Shown: positions 3,436 to 57,517 of the stretch, piece after piece
How positions within the stretch are numbered: position 1 is the first letter of the stretch
How the letters are laid out: each line of letters begins with the position of its first letter
The notes under the pieces: model-generated
Databases searched by the model: none
Told to the model about the DNA's origin: nothing
The model's input: the letters and a program-made list of their open reading frames with translations, nothing else
Program-made: the position numbers and the translations under genes
From: Bdellovibrionales bacterium
GTDB lineage: Bacteria; Bdellovibrionota; FAC87; UBA2466
Assembly: GCA_009692515.1 (NCBI GenBank)
Contig: SHZA01000005.1
Span: 2,517 to 66,516, forward strand
Direction: 5' to 3'
DNA length: 64,000 nucleotides

Positions 3436-3951
3436 CTACCCTTGTATTACCGGTCGATTATTTAAGTTTTTTTTTAAATCACTATTTATGCCTGCAATAC
3501 TCACAGTTTTTCCCACCAATTTACTAGCAATTCGGCTGGCAAAATCTGAAATTAACGGGGAGAGATCTGCCCTAGCCTTTTCGACATCAGTTTTTATCTG
3601 TTTTCTAAGACCGTTTAGTTTTTCACCTACGTCATCACGCGCGGCTTGAGTAATACGATGTTCCTCTTCAGAAATTTTCTTTCGTTCCTCATCCATCCAC
3701 AACGAGGTGGTGCGATGCTCTGCCTTTATAAAATTTTCGTAATCTGCTTTTAGTTTCTCCGCTTTTAGTTTTGCTTTTTCAGCGGCATCTTTAAGTCCGT
3801 GGGTTTTTTGTTCTCGAATGTGGATTAATTCTAGGAGGGGTTTGAAAACCCATAGGTTCATGACAAATAAACTAGATAAAAACAGGGCTAACTGAATCGA
3901 AAACTCGATTGCAAACTGCTGATTTAATACAAGCCCTTCCATTATCTGCAT
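3436..3951 (-). CDS. atpF2: F0F1 ATP synthase subunit b' (second b-type subunit)
   Basis: The 171-aa ORF has an N-terminal TM segment and a K/E-rich coiled coil, and lies directly upstream of atpF as in bacteria that encode b and b'. Confidence 0.7.
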   Translation of the reverse strand: MQIMEGLVLNQQFAIEFSIQLALFLSSLFVMNLWVFKPLLELIHIREQKTHGLKDAAEKAKLKAEKLKADYENFIKAEHRTTSLWMDEERKKISEEEHRITQAARDDVGEKLNGLRKQIKTDVEKARADLSPLISDFASRIASKLVGKTVSIAGINSDLKKNLNNRPVIQG

Positions 3952-10579: not shown

Positions 10580-12196
10580 CTACGCCAGTTGCGGAAGTGA
10601 TCCCTTTTTATCTTTGAGAGCACCCTGCTGAATCACACCTAGCAGTGTACTTACAAAAATATAAAGGGTAAGCCCCGAAGGTAAATTAATCATCATGAAG
10701 GTAAAAATCACCGGCATGAACAACATCATTTTTTGCTGCGCCGGGTCCATTCCAGCACTTGGAGTCATTTTTTGCTGTAGGAACATGGCCGCTCCCATTA
10801 AAACGGGATAAATATAGAAGGGATCTTTAGTAGATAAATCCTGAATCCAACCAAAAAATGGCGCGTGAAATAGCTCAATAGAATTTCCAAGGACTGCATA
10901 CAACGCAATAAAAACTGGCAATTGAACCAACATCGGCAAACATCCCCCAGCAGGATTCACTTTGTGTACTTTAAACAAAGCCATTTGCTCTTCGTTTAGT
11001 TTTTTCTGATCGTCCTTATGTTTTTCTTTAATCGCGGCAATTTGCGGTTGAAGCTTTTGCATAGCCTTCATCGACTTCATACTTTTTTGAGATAGTGGAT
11101 AAAATAGCGCCCTCACTAAAATGGTGAGAAGAATAATGGCGACACCGAAGTTATGAATGAATTTATGAAAAAATCTAAGCAGCTCTAATAACGGATAGGC
11201 TACCACTGCAAAGGTTCCATAATCGATCAATTTTTTTAACCCAGGAACCTTTGAGAGTTCATTGTAATCCTTAGGCCCCACATAAAACCTGAGAGCAAAC
11301 TTAAGTTCCGTTTGATCCTTTTTCAAAACAATCGGATACCTTAAATAGACCCCATTAAAATTCTCGGTCTTTTTGTAAACCACATCTGGGTTTATCTGAC
11401 TTTCTTGATTAATAACGACATTTGAAAAATATCGATTTCCAAAGGCCACCCAGTTGGTATGCCCCTGTTGAACCGCTTCATCATCTTTTCGCAGTTTTTC
11501 TATCGAGACACGTTTGATCTCATCATTTTGATAAACCACAACCTCCCAAGACTTCAATGGAAGCTGGGCATCAAATTGCTCACTTTCATTAGTTCCCACT
11601 GGAATCAAAAGATTTCCCCACTCTTTTTGGGCCCCTTTTGGAAAGGTAATAGTAACGTCTGCATCGATAAAATTTGAATTCTCTGAAACTCGATATTCTT
11701 TTGTGACAACCGCCTTCTTTGTGGCTTTAGAGAAGGTAACCACATTTCCAAGGCGCTTGGCGTCATAAGCCCCCCGTGAAAACTCTGCTAAATTTGGATC
11801 TGTAAAAATAGTCGATAGGGCCAAGGAGGTCTTTTCCGGAGACACCAGGCTAATTAAGGGCGAGTGATTATCGATAGTTTCATGAAACTTAGGAAGGTTT
11901 GCTGTGACAATCTTGCCTCCATTATTGGAAAACAATAAATCCATATTAGGCGTTACTATTTGGATAACTCTCCGATCCAAAACAATAGGAGAAAAATCTG
12001 ATGCCTTCATTAAACCAGGGGCTTGCTGCGGAGACCCTCCAGCTTCTTTAATCCCAGACTTAGCGGTCTGGACCGCGGCAAGCTCTTCAACCCTCTGTGT
12101 CGAAACTGTCGGTGTTGGAATGGGTGCAAACCATCGCATGTAGGTCAACCAAATTAAAAGCATTAATGAAACTGCTAACCAAGTTTTGGATGCCAT
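10580..12196 (-). CDS. yidC: membrane protein insertase YidC
   Basis: The 538-aa ORF has an N-terminal TM segment, a large periplasmic domain and a C-terminal 5-TM core. It sits in the rnpA-yidD-yidC-mnmE synteny. Confidence 0.9.
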   Translation of the reverse strand: MASKTWLAVSLMLLIWLTYMRWFAPIPTPTVSTQRVEELAAVQTAKSGIKEAGGSPQQAPGLMKASDFSPIVLDRRVIQIVTPNMDLLFSNNGGKIVTANLPKFHETIDNHSPLISLVSPEKTSLALSTIFTDPNLAEFSRGAYDAKRLGNVVTFSKATKKAVVTKEYRVSENSNFIDADVTITFPKGAQKEWGNLLIPVGTNESEQFDAQLPLKSWEVVVYQNDEIKRVSIEKLRKDDEAVQQGHTNWVAFGNRYFSNVVINQESQINPDVVYKKTENFNGVYLRYPIVLKKDQTELKFALRFYVGPKDYNELSKVPGLKKLIDYGTFAVVAYPLLELLRFFHKFIHNFGVAIILLTILVRALFYPLSQKSMKSMKAMQKLQPQIAAIKEKHKDDQKKLNEEQMALFKVHKVNPAGGCLPMLVQLPVFIALYAVLGNSIELFHAPFFGWIQDLSTKDPFYIYPVLMGAAMFLQQKMTPSAGMDPAQQKMMLFMPVIFTFMMINLPSGLTLYIFVSTLLGVIQQGALKDKKGSLPQLA

Positions 12197-12449: not shown

Positions 12450-12866
12450 TTATCTGATGTTTTTAGGCCGGCCGATGTATTTAATAAACTCATTTACCTC
12501 TTCTGAAACTTCTAAAAGGCCCAATCTCTTCCACTGCGTGGTTAATGAACTTAACCCAAGTACATTAACGTCAATCCCCTGAAAACTATCAAGATTTTTT
12601 CTAAAAACCTCTCGCAACAATCTCCGAATTCTATTTCGGGCTACTGCACTTTTTAACACCTTCTTGGATAAGGAAAGACCCAATCGACCCTTACCTTCAC
12701 GAGTAAAAACAAAGGTAAAAAACCCTGTTTTTACCCGCTCAAACCGAGAAAATCGAAAGTCTTTTTTCTTTTTTAACCTGGTTGTTTTAGCAAGCTTCTG
12801 ACAACGAGAAGGTGCTTTAATCTTCTCTTCCAACGTACCGATGCTATTTTCCACCAAGGCAAACAA
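12450..12866 (-). CDS. rnpA: ribonuclease P protein component
   Basis: The 138-aa basic protein has the RNR motif ([11 protein letters not shown]). It appears to use a TTG start and lies downstream of rpmH. Confidence 0.8.
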
Positions 12867-12993: not shown

Positions 12994-13298
12994 TTGAAAC
13001 CTCTACTTAAGTAATCTTATGTTTAAACCGTTGCATCCTATTGATTCCTACAGCCCGTGTCAAACCCTTTGCTGGCCCCTATTCAAATCTTCTGCACCAC
13101 CGACCGCTCCCACCCAATTTATCTCCTTTAGCAAATGGCTACAGGCCCAAACTCACTGCTTGTAGGTCGTCATAAATTGTTTTCATTTGTTGTCAATAAA
13201 ACTACTTCTATGAATTACCGTGCTTTGGGTTGCCAAAAGAAATCTGCTTTGTTAGCTGTTTGCCTCAACGGGTGGGGCAGGGCCTTAAAATTACCAGT

Positions 13299-14600
13299 AT
13301 GAGTTCAAAATCTTGGTTACAGATTCGAGATCGGTTAAAAGCATCTTTACCCGGTCATATTTTTTCCACGCTAGTCGAACCTACGTCCTGTTTAGAAACT
13401 GACGCTGCTTTAGAGTTATCTTTTCCTAATCGATTTACCAAAGAAAGTTTTGAAGAAAAATGTTTGTCTCCTATGAGACTTGCCCTGAAAGAGCTTTCTT
13501 TGGATACAAAACGGGTAGAGCTTTTCGTTTTTAAAACGGCCTCCGTAGAAACACAACCCGCTTTTTTGTCTCCCTCTTCAGTGAGTCCTTTTGATCCAAA
13601 ATATACCTTTGAAACTTTTGTGATTGGGTCTTCTAACCAATTTGCTCATGCCGCCTGCCAGGCCGTCTCAAGACAACCAGGACAATGTTACAACCCTCTT
13701 TTTATTTTTGGTGGCGCGGGACTCGGAAAAACGCATCTCCTTCGCGCCATTGGACATGAAATTTTTAAAACCCAAAACAACCTTCGGGTTTTATTTCTAA
13801 CAAGTGAGGCATTTACCAATGAACTCATTCAAGCGATTCGCATCGATAGAATGAGGGAGTTTCGCGAAAAGTATCGCGCGAGTTGTGATGTTCTTTTACT
13901 CGATGACATTCACTTTTTAGCGGGAAAGGAAAGAACTCAAGAGGAGTTTTTCTATACCTTTAATTATCTTCATGAATCTAGAAAACAGATCGTGATCACC
14001 TCCGATCGTTACCCCAAGGATATTTCTGGGTTAGAAAACAGACTTCAAACTCGATTTGAATGGGGATTAGTCGCCGATGTTCAACCTCCCGAGGTTGAAA
14101 CTCGCGTGGCTATTTTAAAAAATAAAGCGGAGGAACAAAATATTCTACTTCCCGATGAAGTAGCTCACTATATTGCCTCTCACGTTACCTCAAATATTCG
14201 TGAGCTAGAAGGGTCGCTACACCGATTGCAAGCGCATGCTTCGCTGAACCATACCTTAATCACTATGGAGCTCGCACAACAAACCCTGAGAGATTTGGTG
14301 CCAAAAATAAGACACCAACTAACGCCGGATGGGATCTTAAAATTGGTCGCGCTTACTTTCGGATTAAAAATAATCGATTTAAAGGCCGACAAAAGAGCCC
14401 GTGTTTTGAGCGAACCCCGACAAATTTGTATGTATTTACTCAGAAAACATTTGATGATGTCACTTCCTGAAATCGGAGCTTTTATGGGTAATCGCCACCA
14501 CACAACGATTCTCCACGGTGTGAATGAGATCATTTCTCGTTCAAAAACAAATCCGGAAATTGAGAACAACATTGCGCGAATTGAAAGTCTCATTAGGTAG
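13299..14600 (+). CDS. dnaA: chromosomal replication initiator DnaA
   Basis: The ORF has AAA+ Walker A (GGAGLGKTHLL) and the domain IV HTH. The track ORF begins at a TTG at 13230, but the DnaA-like N-terminus MSSKSWLQIRDRL starts at the ATG at 13299. Confidence 0.9.
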   Translation: MSSKSWLQIRDRLKASLPGHIFSTLVEPTSCLETDAALELSFPNRFTKESFEEKCLSPMRLALKELSLDTKRVELFVFKTASVETQPAFLSPSSVSPFDPKYTFETFVIGSSNQFAHAACQAVSRQPGQCYNPLFIFGGAGLGKTHLLRAIGHEIFKTQNNLRVLFLTSEAFTNELIQAIRIDRMREFREKYRASCDVLLLDDIHFLAGKERTQEEFFYTFNYLHESRKQIVITSDRYPKDISGLENRLQTRFEWGLVADVQPPEVETRVAILKNKAEEQNILLPDEVAHYIASHVTSNIRELEGSLHRLQAHASLNHTLITMELAQQTLRDLVPKIRHQLTPDGILKLVALTFGLKIIDLKADKRARVLSEPRQICMYLLRKHLMMSLPEIGAFMGNRHHTTILHGVNEIISRSKTNPEIENNIARIESLIR

Positions 14601-14993: not shown

Positions 14994-16148
14994 ATGAAAT
15001 TACAGATTTCGAAAAGCCAATTGTTGTTAGGACTCCAACGTGTACAGAATGTGGTAGAGCGAAGAACTACGATGCCCATCTTGTCTAATGCACTTTTAAA
15101 AACAGAAAAAAATGGATTGTCTTTATCTGCCACAGATTTAGAGGTTGGAATTCAGTCGATTTTACCTGCTGAAATCATAGAAGAGGGATCCATAACTGTG
15201 AAGGCGAGAAGTCTTTTAGATATCGTGAGAGAACTTCCAAATACCTTAATTCAATTTCAGACAAGGGAAAATAATCGACTAGAAATAAAGGCGAACAAAT
15301 CGGTTTTTAACATCGTAGGACTTCCATCGGAAGACTTTCCAGAAATTCCTAGCTTTTCCTCAGAAGAAAAACAGCAGTTTGTTAGAATGAATGGCCAGGC
15401 TGTGATGGCTATGCTCGATAAAACTTTATACGCCGCATCTACCGACGAAGCGCGTTATCACTTGAATGGTGTTTATTTTGAAACTCTAGAAAATACCATT
15501 GAGGGTGCCGACAAAGGAAAAAAAGTTTTTCGTATGGTGGCCACCGATGCTCATCGCCTTTCTTTAGTCGATAACCCAGAAACTTTATTTGATGAAAGCG
15601 CTTGGAAACTTTTTCAAGATGGGATCATTGTTCCTCGAAAAGGATTAAATGAACTAAGACGTCTTCTGTCTGAAGGTAAAGAGGATTTTTTTGTAACTAT
15701 CAGAGGGAAGATGTTGTTTGTGAAAAGAGACAATATCTTCTTATCTATGCGGTTGATAGAGGGGAAATATGCCGATTATCGTCGTATCATCCCTGAAAAG
15801 GCGATTAATACTATCTCTGTGGACCGAGAAGCCTTTCTGGCATCACTTAAACGAATTTCTTTGATGTCGTCCGATAAATCTCGTAGTCTAACCTTCAGTT
15901 TAACTCCTGGAGTTCTGCAACTTTCAAGTCAAAGTCCAGAATTAGGGGATGCTAAGGAAGAGATCAGTATCGATTACACAGGCGAAGAATTCAAAATTGG
16001 TTTTAACTCTCGTTATTTGATCGATGCCGTTTCTACAATGGAAGGTAAACAAATAATTTTAGAAATCCGAGGAAAACAAAATCCCGGAGTGATTCGTTCC
16101 TCCGATGGGCCTAATCATACTAGCGTGGTGATGCCGATGAGGATTTGA
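14994..16148 (+). CDS. dnaN: DNA polymerase III beta sliding clamp
   Basis: The 384-aa ORF follows an RBS (AGGGGGA) and is conserved across the three beta-clamp domains. Confidence 0.95.
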   Translation: MKLQISKSQLLLGLQRVQNVVERRTTMPILSNALLKTEKNGLSLSATDLEVGIQSILPAEIIEEGSITVKARSLLDIVRELPNTLIQFQTRENNRLEIKANKSVFNIVGLPSEDFPEIPSFSSEEKQQFVRMNGQAVMAMLDKTLYAASTDEARYHLNGVYFETLENTIEGADKGKKVFRMVATDAHRLSLVDNPETLFDESAWKLFQDGIIVPRKGLNELRRLLSEGKEDFFVTIRGKMLFVKRDNIFLSMRLIEGKYADYRRIIPEKAINTISVDREAFLASLKRISLMSSDKSRSLTFSLTPGVLQLSSQSPELGDAKEEISIDYTGEEFKIGFNSRYLIDAVSTMEGKQIILEIRGKQNPGVIRSSDGPNHTSVVMPMRI

Positions 16149-18634: not shown

Positions 18635-18635
<1 letters not shown>

Positions 18636-21151
18636 TGGAAATTTTAGACGTACATCTTAGTCAGGTTAGTATTGAAGACCAAATGAAGGATGCGTATCTC
18701 GAATACGCCATGTCTGTCATTGTGGGACGCGCATTACCCGATGTGAGAGATGGGTTAAAACCGGTACATCGCAGAATTTTATATGCCATGTATGACATGG
18801 GAAATACTTACGAGAAAGCCTATAAAAAATCGGCACGTATTGTTGGTGATGTGATTGGAAAGTATCACCCGCATGGTGATACCGCCGTGTATGAAACCAT
18901 GGTGCGAATGGCCCAAGATTTTAGCATGCGCTACACCTTAATCGACGGGCAGGGTAATTTTGGATCGGTAGACGGAGATGCTGCGGCCGCCATGCGATAT
19001 ACGGAAGTGCGCCTAGATAAAATTTCTAATCAAGTTCTTGCTGACCTTGAAAAAGAGACCGTTAATTTTAATCCCAACTATGACAATTCTTTACAAGAAC
19101 CGGCAGTACTTCCTACTAGAATTCCGACTCTTTTAGTTAATGGATCCTCAGGAATTGCAGTAGGAATGGCCACCAATATTCCGCCGCATAATTTGAGAGA
19201 GATCATTGATGGAATAAAGGCAGTTATCGCAAATCCAGGAATTAGTATTTTAGAATTAATGCAAATTATTCCAGGGCCCGATTTTCCTACAGCCGGATTT
19301 ATTTACGGAAGAAATGGTCTTAAGGAAGCGTATCATACAGGAAAAGGAATTATTCAGTTACGTGCTAGAGCAGAAGTTGAAGAGGCTAAAGCGGATCGCC
19401 AAAGAATTGTAGTCACAGAACTTCCCTATCAAGTCAATAAAGCCAAACTCATTGAGCACATTGCTGAACTCATTCGAGACAAAAAAGTTGAAGGAATTTC
19501 CGATATTCGCGACGAATCGGATCGAACCGGAATGCGGGTTGTTTTTGATCTGAAAAAGGGCGAGGACAGTCGTGTTGTTTTAAATCAGCTATATAAAAAT
19601 ACGCAGATGCACGTTTCCTTTGGAATCAGCATGCTAGCAATCGATCATCAGCAACCCAAACTTTTAACACTCAAAGATTGTTTGATAGCCTTCCTTCAAC
19701 ACAGGAAAGAGGTCGTTACCAAACGAACCGTTTTCGATTTAAGAAAAGCGGAAGAGAAAGCACATATTTTAGAGGCCTTAAAAAAGGCCGTTGAAAACCT
19801 TGATGAAATCGTAGCACTTATTAGAAAGGCCACCAATCCTAGCGAAGCCCAAGAACAGCTTATTGCTAAGTTTGTTTTTTCTGAAGTTCAAGCCAAGGCT
19901 ATTTTAGAAATGAGACTTCAACGCTTAACAGGCCTTGAAAGAGAAAAAATAGTTTCAGATTATAACGAAACCATGGCTACGATAGCTGAGTTAAACGCCA
20001 TTCTATCCGATGAAAATAAAGTATTAACAATTATCGGCAAAGAATTAGAAGAGGTGAGAAAAAATTTCGGTGATGCTCGTCGGACAGAATTTATCGACGA
20101 ACAAGAGGAAATGACCCAGGAAGATTATATTTTAGAGGAGGAGATGGTAGTGACCGTCACCTATTCTGGATATGTCAAACGACTCTCAGTTGATGCCTAT
20201 CGTTCTCAACGTAGAGGAGGCAAGGGGTCTATCGGTGTTTCTACTAAGGCGGAAGATTTTATTGCCGATATCTTTGTGGCAACGACTCACGACAATATTT
20301 TGTGTTTTACCGATCAGGGTAGAGTGTATTGGTTGAAGGTTCATAAAATTCCTGAGGCAGGGCGGATCGCTAAGGGCAAACCGATCGTTAATCTACTAAA
20401 TCTTACTACTAACGAACGGGTTCAGGCGGTATTGCCGGTAAAAGAATTTAAGGAAAACGAGTTCGTTACGATGGTAACTCGACAGGGCACGATCAAGAAA
20501 ACCAGTCTAGGTTTATTTTCTCGCCCGATGAAAAAAGGAATTATTGCCATCACTACTGAAGGTGGCGATCTTCTGGTGGATGCCAAAATTACCGACGGAA
20601 ATAATCATATTATCCTTGTAAGTAAATTTGGGCAGAGCATACGGTTTGAAGAACAAGATGTGCGGGCCATGGGAAGAACGGCGCGTGGTGTAGCCGGAAT
20701 GAAATTAGATACCGATGATGTGGTGATTGGAATGGCAATTGTGGCGCCAGAAGACAGCACCGCGCAAGTTTTAACCGTCACCCAAAAAGGGTATGGCAAA
20801 AGAACTTTACTTGAGGAGTATCGCGTTCAAGGACGTGGGGGGTCTGGCGTTATTACGATGAAGATCACGGAAAAAAATGGTCCTGTCATTGCGGTGAGAC
20901 AGGTAAAAGATGAGGACGATCTCATTTTGGCCTCTGATCGTGGCAAGGTAATTCGCACCAGAGTTTCGGAAATCTCTGAAGTAGGAAGGGTTGCCCAAGG
21001 CGTCCGATTGATCTCGCTAGATGACGGAGAAAGCGTTGGCGCAGTCGCAAAAATTGTAGAAAAAGATGATGAAGGAACTGAAGGTAAACCCACATCACCG
21101 ATTGTAAAAAGTAAGGCAGATCCAGATAAGGGTGACGGTAATGCGAAGTAG
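18635..21151 (+). CDS. gyrA: DNA gyrase subunit A
   Basis: The 838-aa ORF has a catalytic Tyr region ([11 protein letters not shown]), a GyrA-box beta-pinwheel CTD and a K/D/E-rich tail. Its start overlaps the gyrB stop. Confidence 0.95.
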
Positions 21152-21322
21152 AGTTTTTTTTTAATTATATTATTTCTTTCTGCGGGTTGCGCAGAAAGAA
21201 AACAGGAAAAACTTTTAGACGCGGCTGAAGCCAAGTTAACGGAAGAAAAATATTCTGAAGCTATCGAACTACTCAGAAAAGTTATTTCCCTTAATCCTGA
21301 AAGCAAGCTTGGTATTAAATCG

Positions 21323-21925
21323 ATGTATAAGTTGGGCCACACACTAGAAACCTATGGCAGGGATTACGCAGGAGCCATTTTCAACTATCAAGAGGCCATT
21401 CGATTAAGTCGAGATCCTGTTTCCGTTTATGAGATTCAAAAGAGAGTCGCCAATCTTTTTTTTGAGCAGGCTAAGGACACCGACAAGGCTATTGCGGCCT
21501 ATAAAAAGCTAATGACCTTTAATCCCAAGAGTTTGGAGACCGATTTTTTTCAGTTTAGAACTGCGGAGGGGTTTTTTAAGCAGAATAATTTTGATCAGGC
21601 CAGACTAGAATATCAACTACTGATAGAGAGCTTTCCCAAAAGCCAATATATCGAAAAGAGCCGATTTGAAATTGGGAATACCTATTACATGGAAGGTAAG
21701 TACGACATTGCTCTGGAATCTTTTAAGCAGGTAGGTCGATATCATAATCAAGGTGAATATACGGTGGAGGCCGAGTTTTTAATTGCGCAGTGTTTAGAGC
21801 AAACCAATAAACTAAGAGCGGCTTTACAGGCCTATGAAGGGGTAAAAAGTCGATATTCCAATCCCAGAATCGTCCAGTTTCGAATAGAGCAGCTTAAGGG
21901 CAGAATAAAAAAAGAGGGAAAATGA
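21323..21925 (+). CDS. TPR-repeat (lipo)protein, N-terminus apparently frameshifted
   Basis: The 200-aa ORF has TPR repeats. Its frame stays open upstream to the gyrA stop and encodes LIILFLSAGC (a lipobox), but the only ATG, at 21141, is in another frame across a T9 tract (21154-21162). Confidence 0.6.
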   Translation: MYKLGHTLETYGRDYAGAIFNYQEAIRLSRDPVSVYEIQKRVANLFFEQAKDTDKAIAAYKKLMTFNPKSLETDFFQFRTAEGFFKQNNFDQARLEYQLLIESFPKSQYIEKSRFEIGNTYYMEGKYDIALESFKQVGRYHNQGEYTVEAEFLIAQCLEQTNKLRAALQAYEGVKSRYSNPRIVQFRIEQLKGRIKKEGK

Positions 21926-22143
21926 TAAAAATAGACACCAAAAAACTGAGGGTCGCCATCATTATGGGAAATGCGGTGATGACCAAGGCGATTATGATCT
22001 GTGCGGGTTGGTATTTTGGTACGAAGCTAGACAAACAATATGGTACCGAACCGTACTGGATGATTAGTCTTGTCGTTTTAGCCATGATTCTTGGGGTTTG
22101 GTTTATTCTATTTACGGCTAAAAGATTTAAGCTCACAGACTAA
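21922..22143 (+). CDS. AtpZ/AtpI-like small membrane protein preceding atpB
   Basis: The 73-aa ORF has 2 TM helices and follows the G..G..LD...GT.P pattern. Its ATG overlaps the upstream TGA (ATGA), and atpB follows. Confidence 0.5.
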   Translation: MIKIDTKKLRVAIIMGNAVMTKAIMICAGWYFGTKLDKQYGTEPYWMISLVVLAMILGVWFILFTAKRFKLTD

Positions 22144-22313
22144 AAGAACCGCTGCCTTTAATAGCGGTTGATAGTGAACGATCAACTTTGTTTGGAAGGT
22201 TGATTTGTGACGATCAACCCTACGCCCACTTAAATCATTCAACCTATTGAATCTTTATTGAAAGATTAAAATAATGGGGGTATTAACAGTGGGTTAAATA
22301 GGAGTTAAACGTA

Positions 22314-23042
22314 ATGCAAAGTCATGGTTCCGCACATCATGGTCCCGAGAGCTGGCTCACAAAGCTACCCTTCTTGCCCCAACAGCGAGAGTGGGAGAGT
22401 GTTAATGGTGCTGTCTTAGTTTTTGTCCTTATTTTGGTGGTGTCTCTTTTAGTGAATCGGATTATTAAGGGTAAAATTCAAGAAAATGTGATTCCTCGTC
22501 CCAAGGTGGGTCTCTTTTCCGTTATCGATCTACTGGTCGAGGCGCTTTATAATTTAATCGTGGGTATTGTCGGTCACCATTATGGGGCCTATGCCTTTCC
22601 CTTCATTGCCTCTATTTTTATTTATGTACTTTTAAATAATCTTTTAGGCCTTTTGCCTATGTCGGCCTCTCCTAGCGCAGCATTTCCTATAGCATTTGCT
22701 TTGGGGATATCTAGTTTCATTTTTTACAATTGGATGGGTGTCAAAGCTAACGGGCTGATTGGGTATGGAAAACACTTTTTAATGGGATTAGGTGTTTTTG
22801 GAATTCCTATTGCGGGCGTTGAGATGATTTCTCATGTCATTCGTCCCTTTACCTTGGGATTACGTCTTAGAACTAACATGCATATCGATCACATGTTGGC
22901 CGGCGCTTTTGCGGAGCTCTGTAAATGGATTGTTCCAGTTCCCCTGTTGCTTTTTGGAGTTGTGGTCTGTACGATTCAGGCCTTTCTTTTTGCGGTTTTG
23001 ACAGCTGTTTATGTACAGATGGCAACGGAACATGAAGAGTAA
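22314..23042 (+). CDS. atpB: F0F1 ATP synthase subunit a
   Basis: The 242-aa polytopic protein contains the conserved Arg region (RPFTLGLRLRTNM) and has an RBS (AGGAG). Confidence 0.85.
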   Translation: MQSHGSAHHGPESWLTKLPFLPQQREWESVNGAVLVFVLILVVSLLVNRIIKGKIQENVIPRPKVGLFSVIDLLVEALYNLIVGIVGHHYGAYAFPFIASIFIYVLLNNLLGLLPMSASPSAAFPIAFALGISSFIFYNWMGVKANGLIGYGKHFLMGLGVFGIPIAGVEMISHVIRPFTLGLRLRTNMHIDHMLAGAFAELCKWIVPVPLLLFGVVVCTIQAFLFAVLTAVYVQMATEHEE

Positions 23043-23062: not shown

Positions 23063-23386
23063 ATGAAACTAATGAATATGTGTAAATTGGCGCTAACGGT
23101 AATGGTAATCTCTTCGGCAAGTGTATTTGCAGAGGAGGGAGCTCATGCAGCTTCTGGTGGAATGGGTTCACTCCTTCCGCTTTCGGTGGGTCTTGCAATG
23201 GCTTTGGCTGTTCTAGGAGCCTCTACAGCACAGGGTAAAATTGGTGCGGCATTTATGGATGGTGTTTCCCGAAATCCAGGAGCACAAAAATCTATGTTTG
23301 TTCCCTTGATTCTATCCTTAGTATTCGTAGAGACACTAGTAGTGGTCACCTTTCTAGTAGCACAAAGTTTACTTGGAAAATTCTAG
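23063..23386 (+). CDS. atpE: F0F1 ATP synthase subunit c, with an N-terminal signal-like extension
   Basis: The 107-aa ORF has a C-terminal c-subunit hairpin (GAAFMDGVSRNPGAQKSMFVPLILSLVFVETLVVV). A strong RBS (AGGAGG) at 23063 supports the long form. Confidence 0.85.
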   Translation: MKLMNMCKLALTVMVISSASVFAEEGAHAASGGMGSLLPLSVGLAMALAVLGASTAQGKIGAAFMDGVSRNPGAQKSMFVPLILSLVFVETLVVVTFLVAQSLLGKF

Positions 23387-27693: not shown

Positions 27694-28702
27694 CGGTATT
27701 CCTTTTTGGTTCATCTGAGGTGAAGATGATGTTGGATTCCACTTTTTTCTTTTCAATCCACAGGGCCATTTTCTTTTCGAGTTCAATTGCGACCATTTGA
27801 TTTTTAAGGAGCTCCTTTTTCTCTTTGGGCAGAGTAGAAAAATCGGGGGTTCGAATCTCAAGAAGCTTTAAAATATGAAACCCGTCGGCCATTTTTAAGG
27901 GTAAGGTGATTTTTCCAATTGCAGTTTTTGGAATGACCGCTTTAAATTCCTTCGATAGCGAAGATAAAGAGAAGTAACCCAAAACACCCTCTGGGCTTTG
28001 CGAATCATCGGAATACTCTTTTGCCAGACGAGAAAAGTCGTCGGTTTTTTTATTAAGCTCGACCCAAATAGTTTTAGCCCTTTTTTCTGCTTCGATAATG
28101 CCCTCAGCGCCCTTTTCTTTTGGGGCAATTAAAATGTGAGCAAGCTTAAACTCCCTTTCCATTTCATCCGAAGTAGAGTTTCTCAAATGAAAATGGCGTA
28201 ACTGCTCCTCTGAAATTTCTAAAGAAGGCCGAACCTCTCTATCGATAAGATTTCTTCTTTCAATTTGTCTTTTAATCCCCTCTTTATACTCAGCCAAGGT
28301 GGATCCTAATTGCTTAAGTCGTTCTGTTAACTGGGCCTGACCGATCCCGTTTCGTTTTAAAATAGAATTAATCTGACCCTCGATTTCTTGAGGGCTAGCT
28401 CCGAGGTCTAATTTTTTGACCTGTTGATTGACCAGTCGCTCCTCAACAAGAAGTTGGAGTGCGGATGTTCTGTTATCTATGACCGCATTAGGAATGCCAC
28501 CAAACAACTCCTGGAAACTTTTTGATTTTATTTTTTTCTGAAAAACAGCAATGTCAGATTCCAAAATAGGCTCATCATTAATAATCACAATGGTTTTATC
28601 AATAATTTTGGGTGCCGCTCCAACAAAAGAACAAACGAAGAACAGATAAAAAAGGTTACAAAGTTGAGTTGAAAAGATTTTCATTTCTGTAGATTTCTCC
28701 AT
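27680..28702 (-). CDS. SurA-like periplasmic chaperone / parvulin-type PPIase (paralog 1)
   Basis: The 340-aa ORF has a signal peptide, a SurA N-domain-like region and a PpiC parvulin domain (HILIA...GVLGYF...GFHILKL). Confidence 0.75.
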   Translation of the reverse strand: MEKSTEMKIFSTQLCNLFYLFFVCSFVGAAPKIIDKTIVIINDEPILESDIAVFQKKIKSKSFQELFGGIPNAVIDNRTSALQLLVEERLVNQQVKKLDLGASPQEIEGQINSILKRNGIGQAQLTERLKQLGSTLAEYKEGIKRQIERRNLIDREVRPSLEISEEQLRHFHLRNSTSDEMEREFKLAHILIAPKEKGAEGIIEAEKRAKTIWVELNKKTDDFSRLAKEYSDDSQSPEGVLGYFSLSSLSKEFKAVIPKTAIGKITLPLKMADGFHILKLLEIRTPDFSTLPKEKKELLKNQMVAIELEKKMALWIEKKKVESNIIFTSDEPKRNTDDSK

Positions 28703-29612
28703 CTTTTAAAAGCTTGGCCAGCCATTCTTTATAAACGCGGCCCTCTTTGTCTTTTTTTAGTGTCTTTACAATTTCTGCTTTTGCCTCATTAAACTGCAAC
28801 CGTTTTGCTAGCTTTTTTTCGACAACCTTAAGCAGGTGCACACCGTATCGACTAGAAATAGGTTTGGAAAGGGTGTTTATTTTTAGTTGAAAGGCCTCAT
28901 TAAAAGCATCGATCTTTTCGTTTTTAGCAAAAAACCCAAGATCGCCACCTTTACTAGCGTCGGGACTCATAGATCGGGCTCGCGCAGCCGATTCGAAGGT
29001 GGTTTTGCCGGTAAGAAGTTCCTGTCGAACCTTTTCTGCCTCCTCCTTTGTGGGGACTACGATTTGAAAGGCGTGAACGCGTTCGGGCTCTATGAACTCC
29101 TTTTCGTGTTGATGAAAGTAGGTTTTTACCTCCTCATCGGGCACGAGGGTTTCATTGGCAAATAGCGATTCGGTGATTTTTTCAACGAGAAGCTGGTCTT
29201 CAATTCTTTGTTTTAATTGAAGCTCGGTGGTGTTCTGCTTTTTGAGCATTTCCGCGAATCCACCAGGGGGATACCCGTCCTTCCAATTGGCTAAACGACT
29301 CTCTACCTGTTCGCGTCCGACACGAACCTGGTGTTTTACGCTCTCTTGTCTTACTAGCGTAAGAATGACCAATTCATTGAGTGCTCGAATTTTTAGTTGA
29401 TCAATTATTTTGGGGTTTTTTTGAGAAACATCATCTTGTTCGGCCTTTAGCTGCTCGTAGCTAGTTAAAAAATCGCCATAATAAACAGGATCGCCATTAA
29501 CCGTTGCGATGATAGCCGTTTTCTTATCCTCTAATTTCGAGGTGCAACCCGGGAAAAAAAAAACCAAGAAGAGAACTAACAAACCACAAAATCTCATTTT
29601 AGTTTTACCCAA
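28656..29612 (-). CDS. parvulin-type PPIase, probable lipoprotein (paralog 2)
   Basis: The 318-aa ORF has an N-terminus with Cys after a hydrophobic stretch (FFPGC) and a PpiC domain (VHAFQIVV...GGDLGFF...GVHLLKV). Confidence 0.7.
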   Translation of the reverse strand: MGKTKMRFCGLLVLFLVFFFPGCTSKLEDKKTAIIATVNGDPVYYGDFLTSYEQLKAEQDDVSQKNPKIIDQLKIRALNELVILTLVRQESVKHQVRVGREQVESRLANWKDGYPPGGFAEMLKKQNTTELQLKQRIEDQLLVEKITESLFANETLVPDEEVKTYFHQHEKEFIEPERVHAFQIVVPTKEEAEKVRQELLTGKTTFESAARARSMSPDASKGGDLGFFAKNEKIDAFNEAFQLKINTLSKPISSRYGVHLLKVVEKKLAKRLQFNEAKAEIVKTLKKDKEGRVYKEWLAKLLKDGEIYRNENLFNSTL

Positions 29613-32848: not shown

Positions 32849-33021
32849 AATCTAACTCTCCTTTCTAAAATGAAATATCGGCCAGCATAACAAGCACAAT
32901 GAAGCAGCGCAACAGGCAATGTAAAAGCGAATATCGACAATAGTAGAAAAGAGTATTATTATATAAGTGTCTTATCAAATTCAAAAAAAAACCTTATTTA
33001 CAACCGTTCCACGGGGGAATC

Positions 33022-35464: not shown

Positions 35465-36919
35465 ATGAAAGAAAATTATCGTGTCGTTGTGGTCGATGAT
35501 GAGGCCGCTAATCTTGAGTCTTTGGAGCGAATACTAAAAAGTGACGGCGCCAACGTCTCTGTTTTTTCTGACCCCCAGGAGGCTCTATTACATTTAAGAA
35601 CCGGTCTCGCGGATGTGTTATTAACCGATCTCCGCATGAAGTCATGGAGCGGAATGGATCTTTTAGATGCCGTAAAGGCCTTAGACTCGTCGATTGAAGT
35701 GATCATGATGACAGCCTTTGGAACGGTCGAGATTGCCGTTGAAGCGATGAAAAGAGGATCTCATGATTTTATTACAAAACCCCTTCAACGAATTCAGGTT
35801 TTAAAGGCCATTCATCGCGCTCTAGATCGGCGGCAACTGGTTTTGGAAAACACGCGACTTAAAGCCGCCGTCTTTGAAGCGAGCCATGGTGCAGATCGAA
35901 ATATTATTGGGAGATCTCAGGCGATTGGAGGCATGATGGAGGTGGCTCTTCGGGCCGCAAGAAGTCGCGCGAATGTTCTTATCGACGGAGAAAGTGGCAC
36001 GGGCAAGGGGCTTCTAGCGCAGTATATTCATGACAATAGCGAGGCCGCTCTTTTGAAAAAAGGGGGTTTCGTTAAAATTAATTGCGCAGCAATTCCTGAT
36101 AATTTATTAGAGGCGGAACTTTTCGGATACGAGCCAGGAGCCTTCACCGGCGCGAACAAAAAAAAACAGGGCAGAGTCGAATTGGCCCATGAGGGCACTC
36201 TTTTCTTAGATGAGATTGGAATTGCACCCCCCACTCTTCAAAGTAAATTACTAAGGTTTTTACAAGAGGGAGAGTTTGAGCGTCTGGGTAGTAATGATAC
36301 TATCAAAATTCAAACCCGAGTTATTAGCGCGACTAACGTGGATCTCAAAGCGGCCATTACCAATCGGCAGTTTCGAGAGGATCTGTTTTATCGTTTAAAT
36401 GTATTACACATTAAAATTCCAGCTCTTCGTGAACGAACCGAGGACATCCCATTGCTAGTCGCCCAATTCTTAGAGGTCGCGGCACGAAAAAATGGCCGGC
36501 CCGTTCCTCTAATTCACGCAGATGTGTTTGAGGTGTTGTCGCATCATGATTGGCCCGGAAACATTAGAGAGCTGCAAAACTTAATAGAACGGCTGGTAGT
36601 TTTAAATACAAGTGGTGAAGTGAAACTGGAGAACCTACCCCAAGAGTTTGGCTGCGGAAAAAAGGATAATGTGATTCGGGTCCCCATTGGCCTCCCACTT
36701 AAAAAGGTAGAGGGTTTATTATTTAAGGAAACGCTTAAGGCAACTAAAGGAGACAAAAAAGTTGCCGCCTTTCTTTTGGGAGTTCATCCAAGAACCATCT
36801 ATCGTTACTTAGAGCAACAACAGGTAACCACGACAGAAAAACCTACAGGTACCGATGCTTTAATTCCCCGGACCAAAGAAGTTGATGAGCCCACAGAAAA
36901 ACAGTTCAACTTACCCTAA
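35465..36919 (+). CDS. sigma-54-dependent response regulator (NtrC family)
   Basis: The ORF has a receiver domain (VVVVDDE), AAA+ Walker A (GESGTGKG), a GAFTGA motif and a C-terminal HTH. It starts at the ATG at 35465; the track ORF begins at 35408. Confidence 0.9.
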   Translation: MKENYRVVVVDDEAANLESLERILKSDGANVSVFSDPQEALLHLRTGLADVLLTDLRMKSWSGMDLLDAVKALDSSIEVIMMTAFGTVEIAVEAMKRGSHDFITKPLQRIQVLKAIHRALDRRQLVLENTRLKAAVFEASHGADRNIIGRSQAIGGMMEVALRAARSRANVLIDGESGTGKGLLAQYIHDNSEAALLKKGGFVKINCAAIPDNLLEAELFGYEPGAFTGANKKKQGRVELAHEGTLFLDEIGIAPPTLQSKLLRFLQEGEFERLGSNDTIKIQTRVISATNVDLKAAITNRQFREDLFYRLNVLHIKIPALRERTEDIPLLVAQFLEVAARKNGRPVPLIHADVFEVLSHHDWPGNIRELQNLIERLVVLNTSGEVKLENLPQEFGCGKKDNVIRVPIGLPLKKVEGLLFKETLKATKGDKKVAAFLLGVHPRTIYRYLEQQQVTTTEKPTGTDALIPRTKEVDEPTEKQFNLP

Positions 36920-57151: not shown

Positions 57152-57517
57152 ATGTCGGCAGATCAAGTCGCTAGTATTTCAAAAAAAAAGTTTGAAGAGT
57201 TATCAACGAAAACCTTTTCCGTAAAAATAAAAGGTAAAGTTGTTAAAGGGTTTATTACAAAAAAGAAGGGGCATTATTTTGCCTATCTAAATTTGTGTAA
57301 GCACCTCCCTGTCACCCTAGATCTGAATGACGGAAACTTTTTTGATTTTGAAAAAAAGTACTTTCAATGTCACATGCATGGAGCCATGTATGAAATAGAA
57401 ACGGGGTTTTGTATCGCAGGGCCTTGTCAAGGGGCTCGGCTAGAGATGTTAGAAATTATTGAAGAGGAGTCGAAGCTTTTGATTAAGGTGCCCGCTAAGT
57501 TTGCAGAAATTAAATAA
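57152..57517 (+). CDS. Rieske [2Fe-2S] domain protein
   Basis: The 121-aa ORF has the two Rieske boxes CKH ... CHMH with 21-residue spacing. Confidence 0.75.
   Translation: MSADQVASISKKKFEELSTKTFSVKIKGKVVKGFITKKKGHYFAYLNLCKHLPVTLDLNDGNFFDFEKKYFQCHMHGAMYEIETGFCIAGPCQGARLEMLEIIEEESKLLIKVPAKFAEIK

Follow-up and report, generated by a model that had tools for sequence, protein, structure and literature searches.

A conserved T run in the signal peptide of a lipoprotein gene behind gyrA is a probable recoding site in uncultured Bdellovibrionota

Introduction

The closest described counterpart of the gene reported here is mxiE of Shigella flexneri, in which RNA polymerase inserts one untemplated U at a U run (T9 in the DNA) and so fuses two open reading frames (ORFs), an event needed for a functional product (PMC1088944, PMC5009743). 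Here, we analyzed a tetratricopeptide repeat (TPR) lipoprotein gene that follows gyrA in a 64,000-nucleotide stretch of DNA from a Bdellovibrionales bacterium (positions 2,517 to 66,516 of contig SHZA01000005.1, assembly GCA_009692515.1), referred to below as the window. The gene is probably a conserved case of programmed recoding on a U run, a reading to which we give a probability of about 0.7. As in mxiE, a short upstream ORF is split from the main ORF by a T run, and both the length of the run and the direction of the correction match. Whereas mxiE is a virulence-plasmid gene for a cytoplasmic regulator of the AraC type, the site described here lies 5–10 codons past the start, inside the signal peptide of a lipoprotein and against the gyrA stop, and it is found clade-wide; slippage at this locus is inferred rather than measured. 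A literature search on slippage in Bdellovibrio returned nothing relevant and no report of this case.

Runs of nine are also conserved polymerase slippage sites, with a nearby out-of-frame stop, in dnaX of Thermus thermophilus (A9) and in insertion sequence (IS) transposases (A9 or T9) (PMC1088944, PMC5009743, PMC3711429). Slippage in T. thermophilus dnaX makes a shorter extra product and both products are used, whereas the unslipped product here would be a 7-residue peptide with no obvious use. Unlike the IS transposases, the TPR gene is not a mobile element. Ribosomal -1 frameshifting of the E. coli dnaX and IS3 type offers a further likeness, with a 0-frame X_XXY_YYZ heptamer, a -1 shift to the productive frame, and an adjacent 0-frame stop, but at this locus we found no conserved upstream Shine-Dalgarno (SD)-like sequence or downstream hairpin or pseudoknot that might act as a stimulator. 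Sites that combine a slippery run with a “shifty stop” were reportedly described by Weiss et al. in 1987. In E. coli, U_UUU_UUU is a weak ribosomal -1 motif (PMC5009743, PMC4066793).

The P78 lipoprotein of Mycoplasma fermentans undergoes poly-A phase variation, according to the account of Theiss & Wise 1997 given in PMC3711429. As far as that account goes, P78 resembles the present gene in being an operon lipoprotein gene with a homopolymer in its N-terminal coding region, where a frameshift abolishes the product; its switching, however, is at the DNA level and both states are frequent, whereas the 13 lineages studied here are fixed for one OFF length. Poly(A) tracts of endosymbionts are said, by Tamas et al. 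in 2008, to carry frameshifts that are rescued by transcriptional frameshifting. A poly-A frameshift in tssM of Citrobacter rodentium is also rescued by transcriptional frameshifting (PMC4256274). As in these cases, a homopolymer indel interrupts a needed gene here, and polymerase infidelity would restore enough product. The tssM and endosymbiont lesions are recent and lineage-specific, whereas this one is ancient and clade-wide and has a conserved adjacent stop. Taken as a whole, the locus would appear to work like an mxiE-type realignment site or a slippery run with a shifty stop, and unlike a phase-variable contingency locus. To our knowledge, few non-mobile genes of bacterial chromosomes have conserved recoding; prfB, dnaX, and a handful of others are the examples.

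Results

A T9 run separates the start of the gene from its body

The start of the lipoprotein gene sits within the final gyrA codons (GGT AAT GCG AAG TAG), in the +1 frame. The junction is made up of the following features.

18635..21151, plus strand: gyrA coding sequence, 838 amino acids (aa), from the ORF list; TAG at 21149-21151
21128..21132, plus strand: AAGGG, SD-like, 8 nucleotides (nt) 5' of ATG 21141, doubling as gyrA Lys-Gly codons
21141..21164, plus strand: leader ORF (0 frame), ATG CGA AGT AGA GTT TTT TTT TAA, encoding MRSRVFF and a stop; start ATG at 21141-21143; would supply the basic n-region of the signal peptide
21154..21162, plus strand: T9 run, homopolymer length exactly nine; proposed slippery (recoding) site
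21162..21164, plus strand: 0-frame stop TAA, with one T in common with the T9 run; ends unshifted reading after 7 codons
21161..21190, plus strand: start of the body frame (-1), with the hydrophobic region (h-region) and lipobox LIILFLSAGC; Cys codon TGC at 21188-21190
21188..21925, plus strand: mature TPR lipoprotein, about 245 aa; stop TGA at 21923-21925
21323..21325, plus strand: ATG, first canonical in-frame start, Met-60 of the repaired protein; used by gene callers, giving a truncated 200-aa product

The original prediction, made from the letters of this DNA, had described the ATG at 21141 overlapping gyrA, its upstream AAGGG, the reading MRSRVFF followed by TAA, and the T9 run, and the sequence bears out each of them. 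AAGGG is the presumed ribosome-binding site of the lipoprotein gene, and other lineages have GAAGG or AAGGG at the equivalent position. Beginning at 21152, the codon next to the gyrA TAG, the TPR frame stays open as far as TGA 21923-21925, and gyrA is read in this frame too. The TPR frame translates as SFF-LIILFLSAGC-AERKQEK... and then the TPR domain. As originally reported, the stretch with the lipobox contains no ATG, GTG, or TTG; the first such codon is ATG 21323, which is itself probably not the real start. The identity of gyrA is taken from Pfam DNA_topoisoIV and DNA_gyraseA_C matches on its orthologues, and gyrA was used as the tblastn query.

We varied the tract length and translated the result. 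A T10 (MRSRVFFLIILFLSAGC..., 261 aa) or T7 (260 aa) tract restores the frame. T8 and T11, which had been put forward at first as the restoring lengths, do not; they read MRSRVFF(F)NYIISFCGL... and stop after 28–29 codons. Therefore, the DNA or the RNA has to gain one nucleotide (+1 nt), or the ribosome has to shift by -1. An mRNA with U10 joins leader and body as GTT TTT TTT TTA (VFFL). Judged by pattern, only the recoded product, MRSRVFFLIILFLSAG-C, has a basic n-region, an h-region, and a lipobox ending in Cys, and the equivalent is true in all lineages.

The same correction is needed in every lineage

A search with the repaired protein gave 78 homologues. DNA was read directly for 25 distinct contigs drawn from NCBI metagenome-assembled genomes (MAGs), ENA, JGI, and Logan, which make up 13 species-level lineages at 57–96% protein identity; the lineages are phylogenetically non-independent. 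These relatives are uncultured freshwater Bdellovibrionota (e.g., Bdellovibrionaceae bacterium UBA2466). All 25 contigs share a start that overlaps the end of gyrA (ATG; GTG in one lineage) and a leader of 5–10 codons with at least one Arg or Lys. The leaders are MRSRVFF, MQSRVFF, MRIRVFF, MLVRVFF, MIRTKVFF, MRVPIKVFF, MVPRFFF, QTKFFF, MEIRVFF, MVIRVFF, MAVRIFF, and MPRILLKTVFF. The run is T9 in 11 lineages and T10 in the other two, where the preceding codon is AAG or AGG. In all lineages a hydrophobic stretch and a [GAS]-C lipobox are kept in the -1 frame, and the TPR body continues in the frame of gyrA right behind the TAG or TAA stop. One identical correction (+1 nt or a -1 shift) is needed in 13 of 13 lineages, and none is in the other wrong frame. 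The original prediction had pointed to tract length in orthologous loci as informative, and it proved so: T9 or T10 recurs in the same register in every lineage, more than chance would give.

A 0-frame stop follows the run directly in 12 of the 13 lineages, as TAA in 11 and TGA in L029; L016 has TAC. The adjacent TAA is made by a Leu-TTA codon and an Ile, Thr, or Ser codon that begins with A, and the TGA of L029 by TTG and ATT. Despite saturated synonymous sites, the run positions are invariant columns of the DNA alignment. TTC, CTN, and GTV codons never occur within the run, and codon usage at the locus is 60–89% TTT among Phe codons and 6–40% TTA among Leu codons. The bases before the run (21149-21153 in the window, and their equivalents) are always purine-rich and SD-like (TAGAG, TAAGG, TAGGA, CTAGG), which is partly forced by the gyrA stop and the Arg or Lys codon of the leader.

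The TPR body is under strong purifying selection. The ratio of nonsynonymous to synonymous substitution rates (dN/dS) is 0.078 against L012, the closest pair at 96% identity, and between other lineages the proportion of nonsynonymous differences (pN) is 0.08–0.28 while that of synonymous differences (pS) is 0.77–0.94, i.e., saturated.

The start codon is shared with uninterrupted sister lineages

Homologues above ~68% identity all have odd N-termini (MCLSAGC, MLLAFVGC, MFLFGC, MLASC, or a start at MYKLG), and those near 60% identity have normal MRK... signal peptides. ATG 21141 is homologous to the annotated start of the uninterrupted sister lineages L077, L079, and L080, in which gyrA AAT GCx TAA holds ATG CCT AAA or ATG CGT AAA. 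L077 continues CTA TTT TTT TTC, an in-frame T8, and encodes an ordinary signal peptide such as MPKLFFFLLS.... The repaired 261-aa protein is collinear with the uninterrupted orthologues P0010-P0016 and P0024.

Clade statements are taken from the topology of simple neighbor-joining trees only, and in those of both the TPR protein and GyrA the main recoded group is monophyletic. This is consistent with recoding in the main clade having arisen through the loss of a single nucleotide in an ancestor. L029, from a groundwater MAG with 57% identity, falls among uninterrupted lineages in both trees. Its locus (L029 2975-3020, JACQOU010000331.1) reads MPRILLKTVFF, T9, TGA, and then LICIALLSSC. L029 is either a second independent (convergent) origin or a single-contig error.

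Polymerase slippage is the tentative first choice of mechanism

The sequences themselves show the anatomy, its conservation, the purifying selection on the body, and the homology of the start codon; the slipping enzyme, its efficiency, and any regulatory purpose are inferred. Initiation would take place at ATG 21141, within the last gyrA codons, and translational coupling to gyrA is probable. The codons for MRSRVFF would provide the positively charged beginning of the lipoprotein signal peptide, the frame would move back one nucleotide inside the T9 run at 21154-21162, and the shifted frame would proceed as L-IILFLSAGC and then the TPR domain. By the most likely route, RNA polymerase would slip on T9 and add an untemplated U in a fraction of transcripts; that this route dominates we propose tentatively, at a little short of even odds. 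Alternatively, or in addition, ribosomes could shift -1 on U_UUU_UUU beside the 0-frame UAA, which would give the identical protein (VFF-L). Events without slippage or shifting would terminate at TAA after 7 codons. A possible, speculative purpose is a low fixed yield of lipoprotein from the gyrBA-coupled message and, via an ATGA overlap with the next gene, an influence on atpZ-atpB-atpE.

The locus has the features of transcriptional realignment, namely an A/T run of about nine or more at the junction, a 1-nt fusion that gives a full-length homologue, and conservation among diverged orthologues. A/T runs of 9 cause efficient slippage of bacterial RNA polymerase without other signals, and selection against such runs is visible from that length (PMC1088944, PMC5009743, PMC3711429). 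Tn with n>8 has been tied to transcriptional realignment (PMC3711429). Insertions predominate in polymerase slippage (PMC1088944, PMC5009743, PMC3711429), which is the direction that this locus needs and thus favors the RNA polymerase route. Because replication slippage on the tract is frequent, a T10 revertant would have been repeatedly available over the time-scale concerned. Such revertants would have been fixed often if they were better, and on the simplest reading their absence argues that T9 with slippage is selected or fully sufficient.

Several points weigh against this interpretation. The adjacent 0-frame stop in 12 of 13 lineages, which three codon combinations produce, is more usual at ribosomal “shifty stop” sites, and the window has a strong hairpin ~11 nt downstream of the run. 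A pair of otherwise identical sequences (L011 and L014, see below) shows that a DNA-level length change, or read ambiguity, does occur at the run. L029 lies outside the recoded clade and is based on one MAG contig. By the argument of Baranov et al. (PMC1088944), four other in-frame coding runs of 9–10 nt in the window may mean that the polymerase slips little, or that slippage is tolerated. Finally, heterogeneous transcripts and a full-length product are predictions of the recoding reading.

Ribosomal frameshifting as a possible dominant route

Recoding could also run mainly through the ribosome, with peptidyl-tRNA-Phe, alone or in tandem, slipping on U_UUU_UUU while the 0-frame UAA or UGA is decoded slowly. 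We consider this possible but on the unlikely side. A perfect X_XXY_YYZ heptamer is present in the leader frame (GT_T TTT TTT_) in all lineages, and the last base of the codon that precedes it is always T (GTT, ATT, or TTT). The stop that abuts the run in all lineages except L016 is kept by TTA+A.. (Ile, Thr, Ser) or TTG+A.., and the 0-frame TAA 21162-21164 may act as a “shifty stop.” However, U_UUU_UUU and U_UUU_UUA are far less shift-prone than A_AAA_AAG in E. coli (PMC5009743), L016 is without an adjacent stop, and the purine-rich bases before the run appear too near to serve as an upstream stimulator of the dnaX type.

We also folded the RNA around the run, taking as criteria for a -1 stimulator a downstream structure at 5-9 nt or an upstream SD-like sequence at 10-14 nt. 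One structure stands out in the window.

21173..21201, plus strand: perfect 12-bp hairpin, arms 21173-21184 and 21190-21201, loop on the lipobox Gly-Cys codons

Its folding energy is -17.3 kcal/mol (z -3.6 against shuffles) and it begins about 11-12 nt past the heptamer/P-site codon, which is suitable spacing for the ribosomal route. In L012 the hairpin is preserved, one C-G pair having become U-A by a compensatory double change. At this position the more distant lineages, however, have only weak U-rich/A-rich pairing, and RNAalifold on 12 lineages gave no consensus pairs around the site. Folded singly, the sequences of the window, L012, and L005 alone give a significant structure, and most lineages do no better than shuffles. 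It is possible that the window hairpin is a local stimulator; it is not conserved across the clade. No intrinsic terminator was found in 20600-22400, and the T run is not part of a recognizable one.

One OFF register predominates over in-frame alleles

In classical phase variation, replication slippage would switch the lipoprotein, and with it the coupled atpZ, ON (T10) and OFF (T9) in subpopulations. The original prediction had offered such a poly-T slippage switch as one of two explanations. The T run stands as the site of the frame change and slippage is still the best idea, but the DNA ON/OFF switch does not hold up well, with 13 lineages OFF and a single in-frame allele, and we regard it as unlikely. 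A homopolymer in the 5' coding (signal-peptide) region of a predicted surface-directed lipoprotein would suit a contingency locus, and long T runs are intrinsically hypermutable. Moreover, two assemblies of what looks like one strain, L011 2831-2840 (T10, out of frame) and L014 2019-2029 (T11, in frame), show no difference over 5,755 nt other than the length of the run.

However, all 25 directly read contigs are OFF in the same frame and one contig is ON, so that the two lengths are not both common, and there is no T8-type OFF allele. The wider database records agree. Seven protein clusters at 90% identity (42 member sequences from about 115 contigs, fragments discarded; these contigs may include re-assemblies of identical data) hold only truncated calls of 197-252 aa, except P0100, a 266-aa protein from L014 that is the sole in-frame protein among them. 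The gene is also conserved and syntenic, resembles a housekeeping gene, is under strong purifying selection, and has uninterrupted orthologues in sister clades, which would be atypical of a contingency locus. Furthermore, an OFF consensus across saturated divergence would not preserve the ORF unless OFF DNA yields protein.

Downstream starts vary among lineages

Another explanation is that translation really begins downstream: ATG 21323 would give a cytoplasmic TPR protein of 200 aa, and the alternative is a non-canonical codon close ahead of the lipobox. The frame farther upstream would then not belong to the gene. Gene callers do pick such starts (TTG-initiated MCLSAGC..., MFLFGC..., MYKLG...). 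All database versions of the protein from the recoded clade lack their N-terminus and begin at arbitrary TTG, GTG, or ATG codons. The public record MSP18266.1 (P0081; 200 aa) is identical to the window ORF 21323-21925, and MCX6102650.1, NQW44416.1, NBX68052.1, and NBY18999.1 are further examples. Nonetheless, this is very unlikely. The chosen starts vary by lineage and are absent in some, with none before 21323 in the window, and L013 offers none of ATG, GTG, TTG, CTG, ATT, or ATA from the gyrA stop up to the Cys. Leu takes the place of Met-60 in L073, L074, and L076 and in most homologues, and orthologues that begin at a shared downstream canonical codon, which would have told against the original prediction, do not occur. 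The 43 residues from the Cys to Met-60, together with the h-region and lipobox, are conserved as protein. Substrates of Lgt and LspA do not function with a signal peptide of 2-5 residues, and 2-5 residues are all that a start just before the lipobox would leave.

Homopolymer controls argue against a sequencing error

The original prediction had also allowed for a miscalled homopolymer. Homopolymers are error-prone, and the T10/T11 difference between L011 and L014 may be such noise, but a true length of T10 in the window is extremely unlikely. The out-of-frame length recurs in 25 contigs from different projects, assemblers, and lineages, and the 200-aa call of the window is recorded on three contigs. 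Six A/T runs of at least 9 nt occur in the window, and those other than the TPR run are listed below.

29554-29563, minus strand: T10, in frame, in the signal peptide of a SurA-like peptidyl-prolyl isomerase lipoprotein (MRFCGLLVLFLVFFFPGC; ORF 28656-29612)
3467-3475, minus strand: A9, in frame, coding (KKK)
36158-36166, plus strand: A9, in frame, coding (KKK)
57181-57189, plus strand: A9, in frame, coding (KKK)
32983-32991: A9, intergenic

The T10 and the three coding A9 runs are read correctly, with their frames intact, and no other broken gene or homopolymer frameshift was noticed in the window. From the SurA-like T10 it is clear that long T runs can persist in frame in this genome, and this T10 was used as a control for the TPR run. 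It is not kept in lineage B, where the orthologue reads MMFRLFLLLASVFCLCSC and the TPR T9 is the sole A/T run of at least 9 nt across 20.7 kb. Across the 64 kb, this organism does not obviously avoid runs that are prone to slippage.

A decaying pseudogene, or read-through of the gyrA stop into a GyrA-TPR fusion, might be suggested by the frameshift near the 5' end and by the TPR body being in the gyrA frame in every lineage, but either is scarcely credible, as the ORF is intact in all lineages with dN/dS 0.078 and pN far under pS, an overlapping start in +1 followed by a -1 shift brings the body into the gyrA frame by geometry, a signal peptide of the lipoprotein type would make no sense halfway through GyrA, and the gyrA stop is TAG in some lineages and TAA in others, without a conserved context for read-through.

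The encoded protein is a predicted envelope TPR lipoprotein

We modeled the structure of the protein from the in-frame window translation using AlphaFold (predicted local distance difference test score 94.9). The mature part, about 245 residues, is an all-helical TPR solenoid of 13 helices, in agreement with matches to Pfam TPR families. Profile and fold searches (Foldseek) gave generic TPR solenoids, with BamD (3qky) at rank 17 and a template modeling score of 0.44. Assignment as BamD (YfiO) was rejected, since TIGR03302 scores 55.0 against a cut-off of 81.4 and Pfam YfiO 24.7 against 25, and so was YbgF (CpoB), for which TIGR02795 scores 75.6 against a cut-off of 90.1. Public records name the protein inconsistently as BamD, TolA-binding protein (JGI), or TPR protein; NBX68052.1, for example, is named “BamD” and begins MFLFGC. 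With scores under the cut-offs and generic TPR matches, the names “BamD” and “TolA-binding protein” are unsupported. We therefore describe the product only as a conserved TPR lipoprotein, predicted to reside in the envelope, whose gene lies between gyrA and the F0 genes.

Genes downstream and around the origin

Three genes follow the lipoprotein gene.

21922..22143, plus strand: atpZ/atpI-like small membrane protein gene (PF09527), 73 aa, whose ATG overlaps the TPR stop (ATGA 21922-21925)
22314-23042, plus strand: atpB (Pfam ATP-synt_A)
23063-23386, plus strand: atpE (Pfam ATP-synt_C)

The overlap of the TPR stop with the atpZ-like start, and atpB and atpE behind it, are as first described, and relatives have the same stop-start arrangement. 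The order dnaA-dnaN-gyrB-gyrA-TPR-atpZ-atpB-atpE, adjoining rnpA-yidD-yidC, is constant. This part of the window is origin-proximal, with yidC at 10580-12196 (minus strand), rnpA at 12450-12866 (minus strand), dnaA at 13230-14600, dnaN at 14994-16148, followed by gyrB and gyrA. Candidates for oriC are the non-coding gaps near 12.9-13.2 kb and 14.6-15.0 kb.

Discussion

Beyond a fixed attenuator, the run could be imagined as a regulatory sensor, although we think this improbable. The slipped or shifted fraction would then set the level of the TPR lipoprotein and, via ribosome traffic and the ATGA overlap, of atpZ-atpB-atpE. Slipped transcripts would be sensitive to the level of uridine triphosphate or to elongation rate, and shifted ribosomes to release-factor activity at the adjacent stop. 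Such a device would sit directly behind gyrBA, near the replication origin, and has perhaps arisen twice, in the main clade and in L029.

If conserved recoding on the U run is correct, it would add a clade-wide case from uncultured freshwater Bdellovibrionota. Two points set it apart: it lies within a signal peptide, where it abuts the stop codon of the preceding gene, and it is kept throughout an uncultured clade. The locus would lend itself to testing, in a natural setting, whether polymerase or ribosome slips on a U run beside a stop. It also bears on how these genomes are read. Pseudogene and frameshift filters would misjudge the locus as an assembly error, and truncated annotations lose the signal peptide, so that predictions of where this protein resides and what it does would be wrong.

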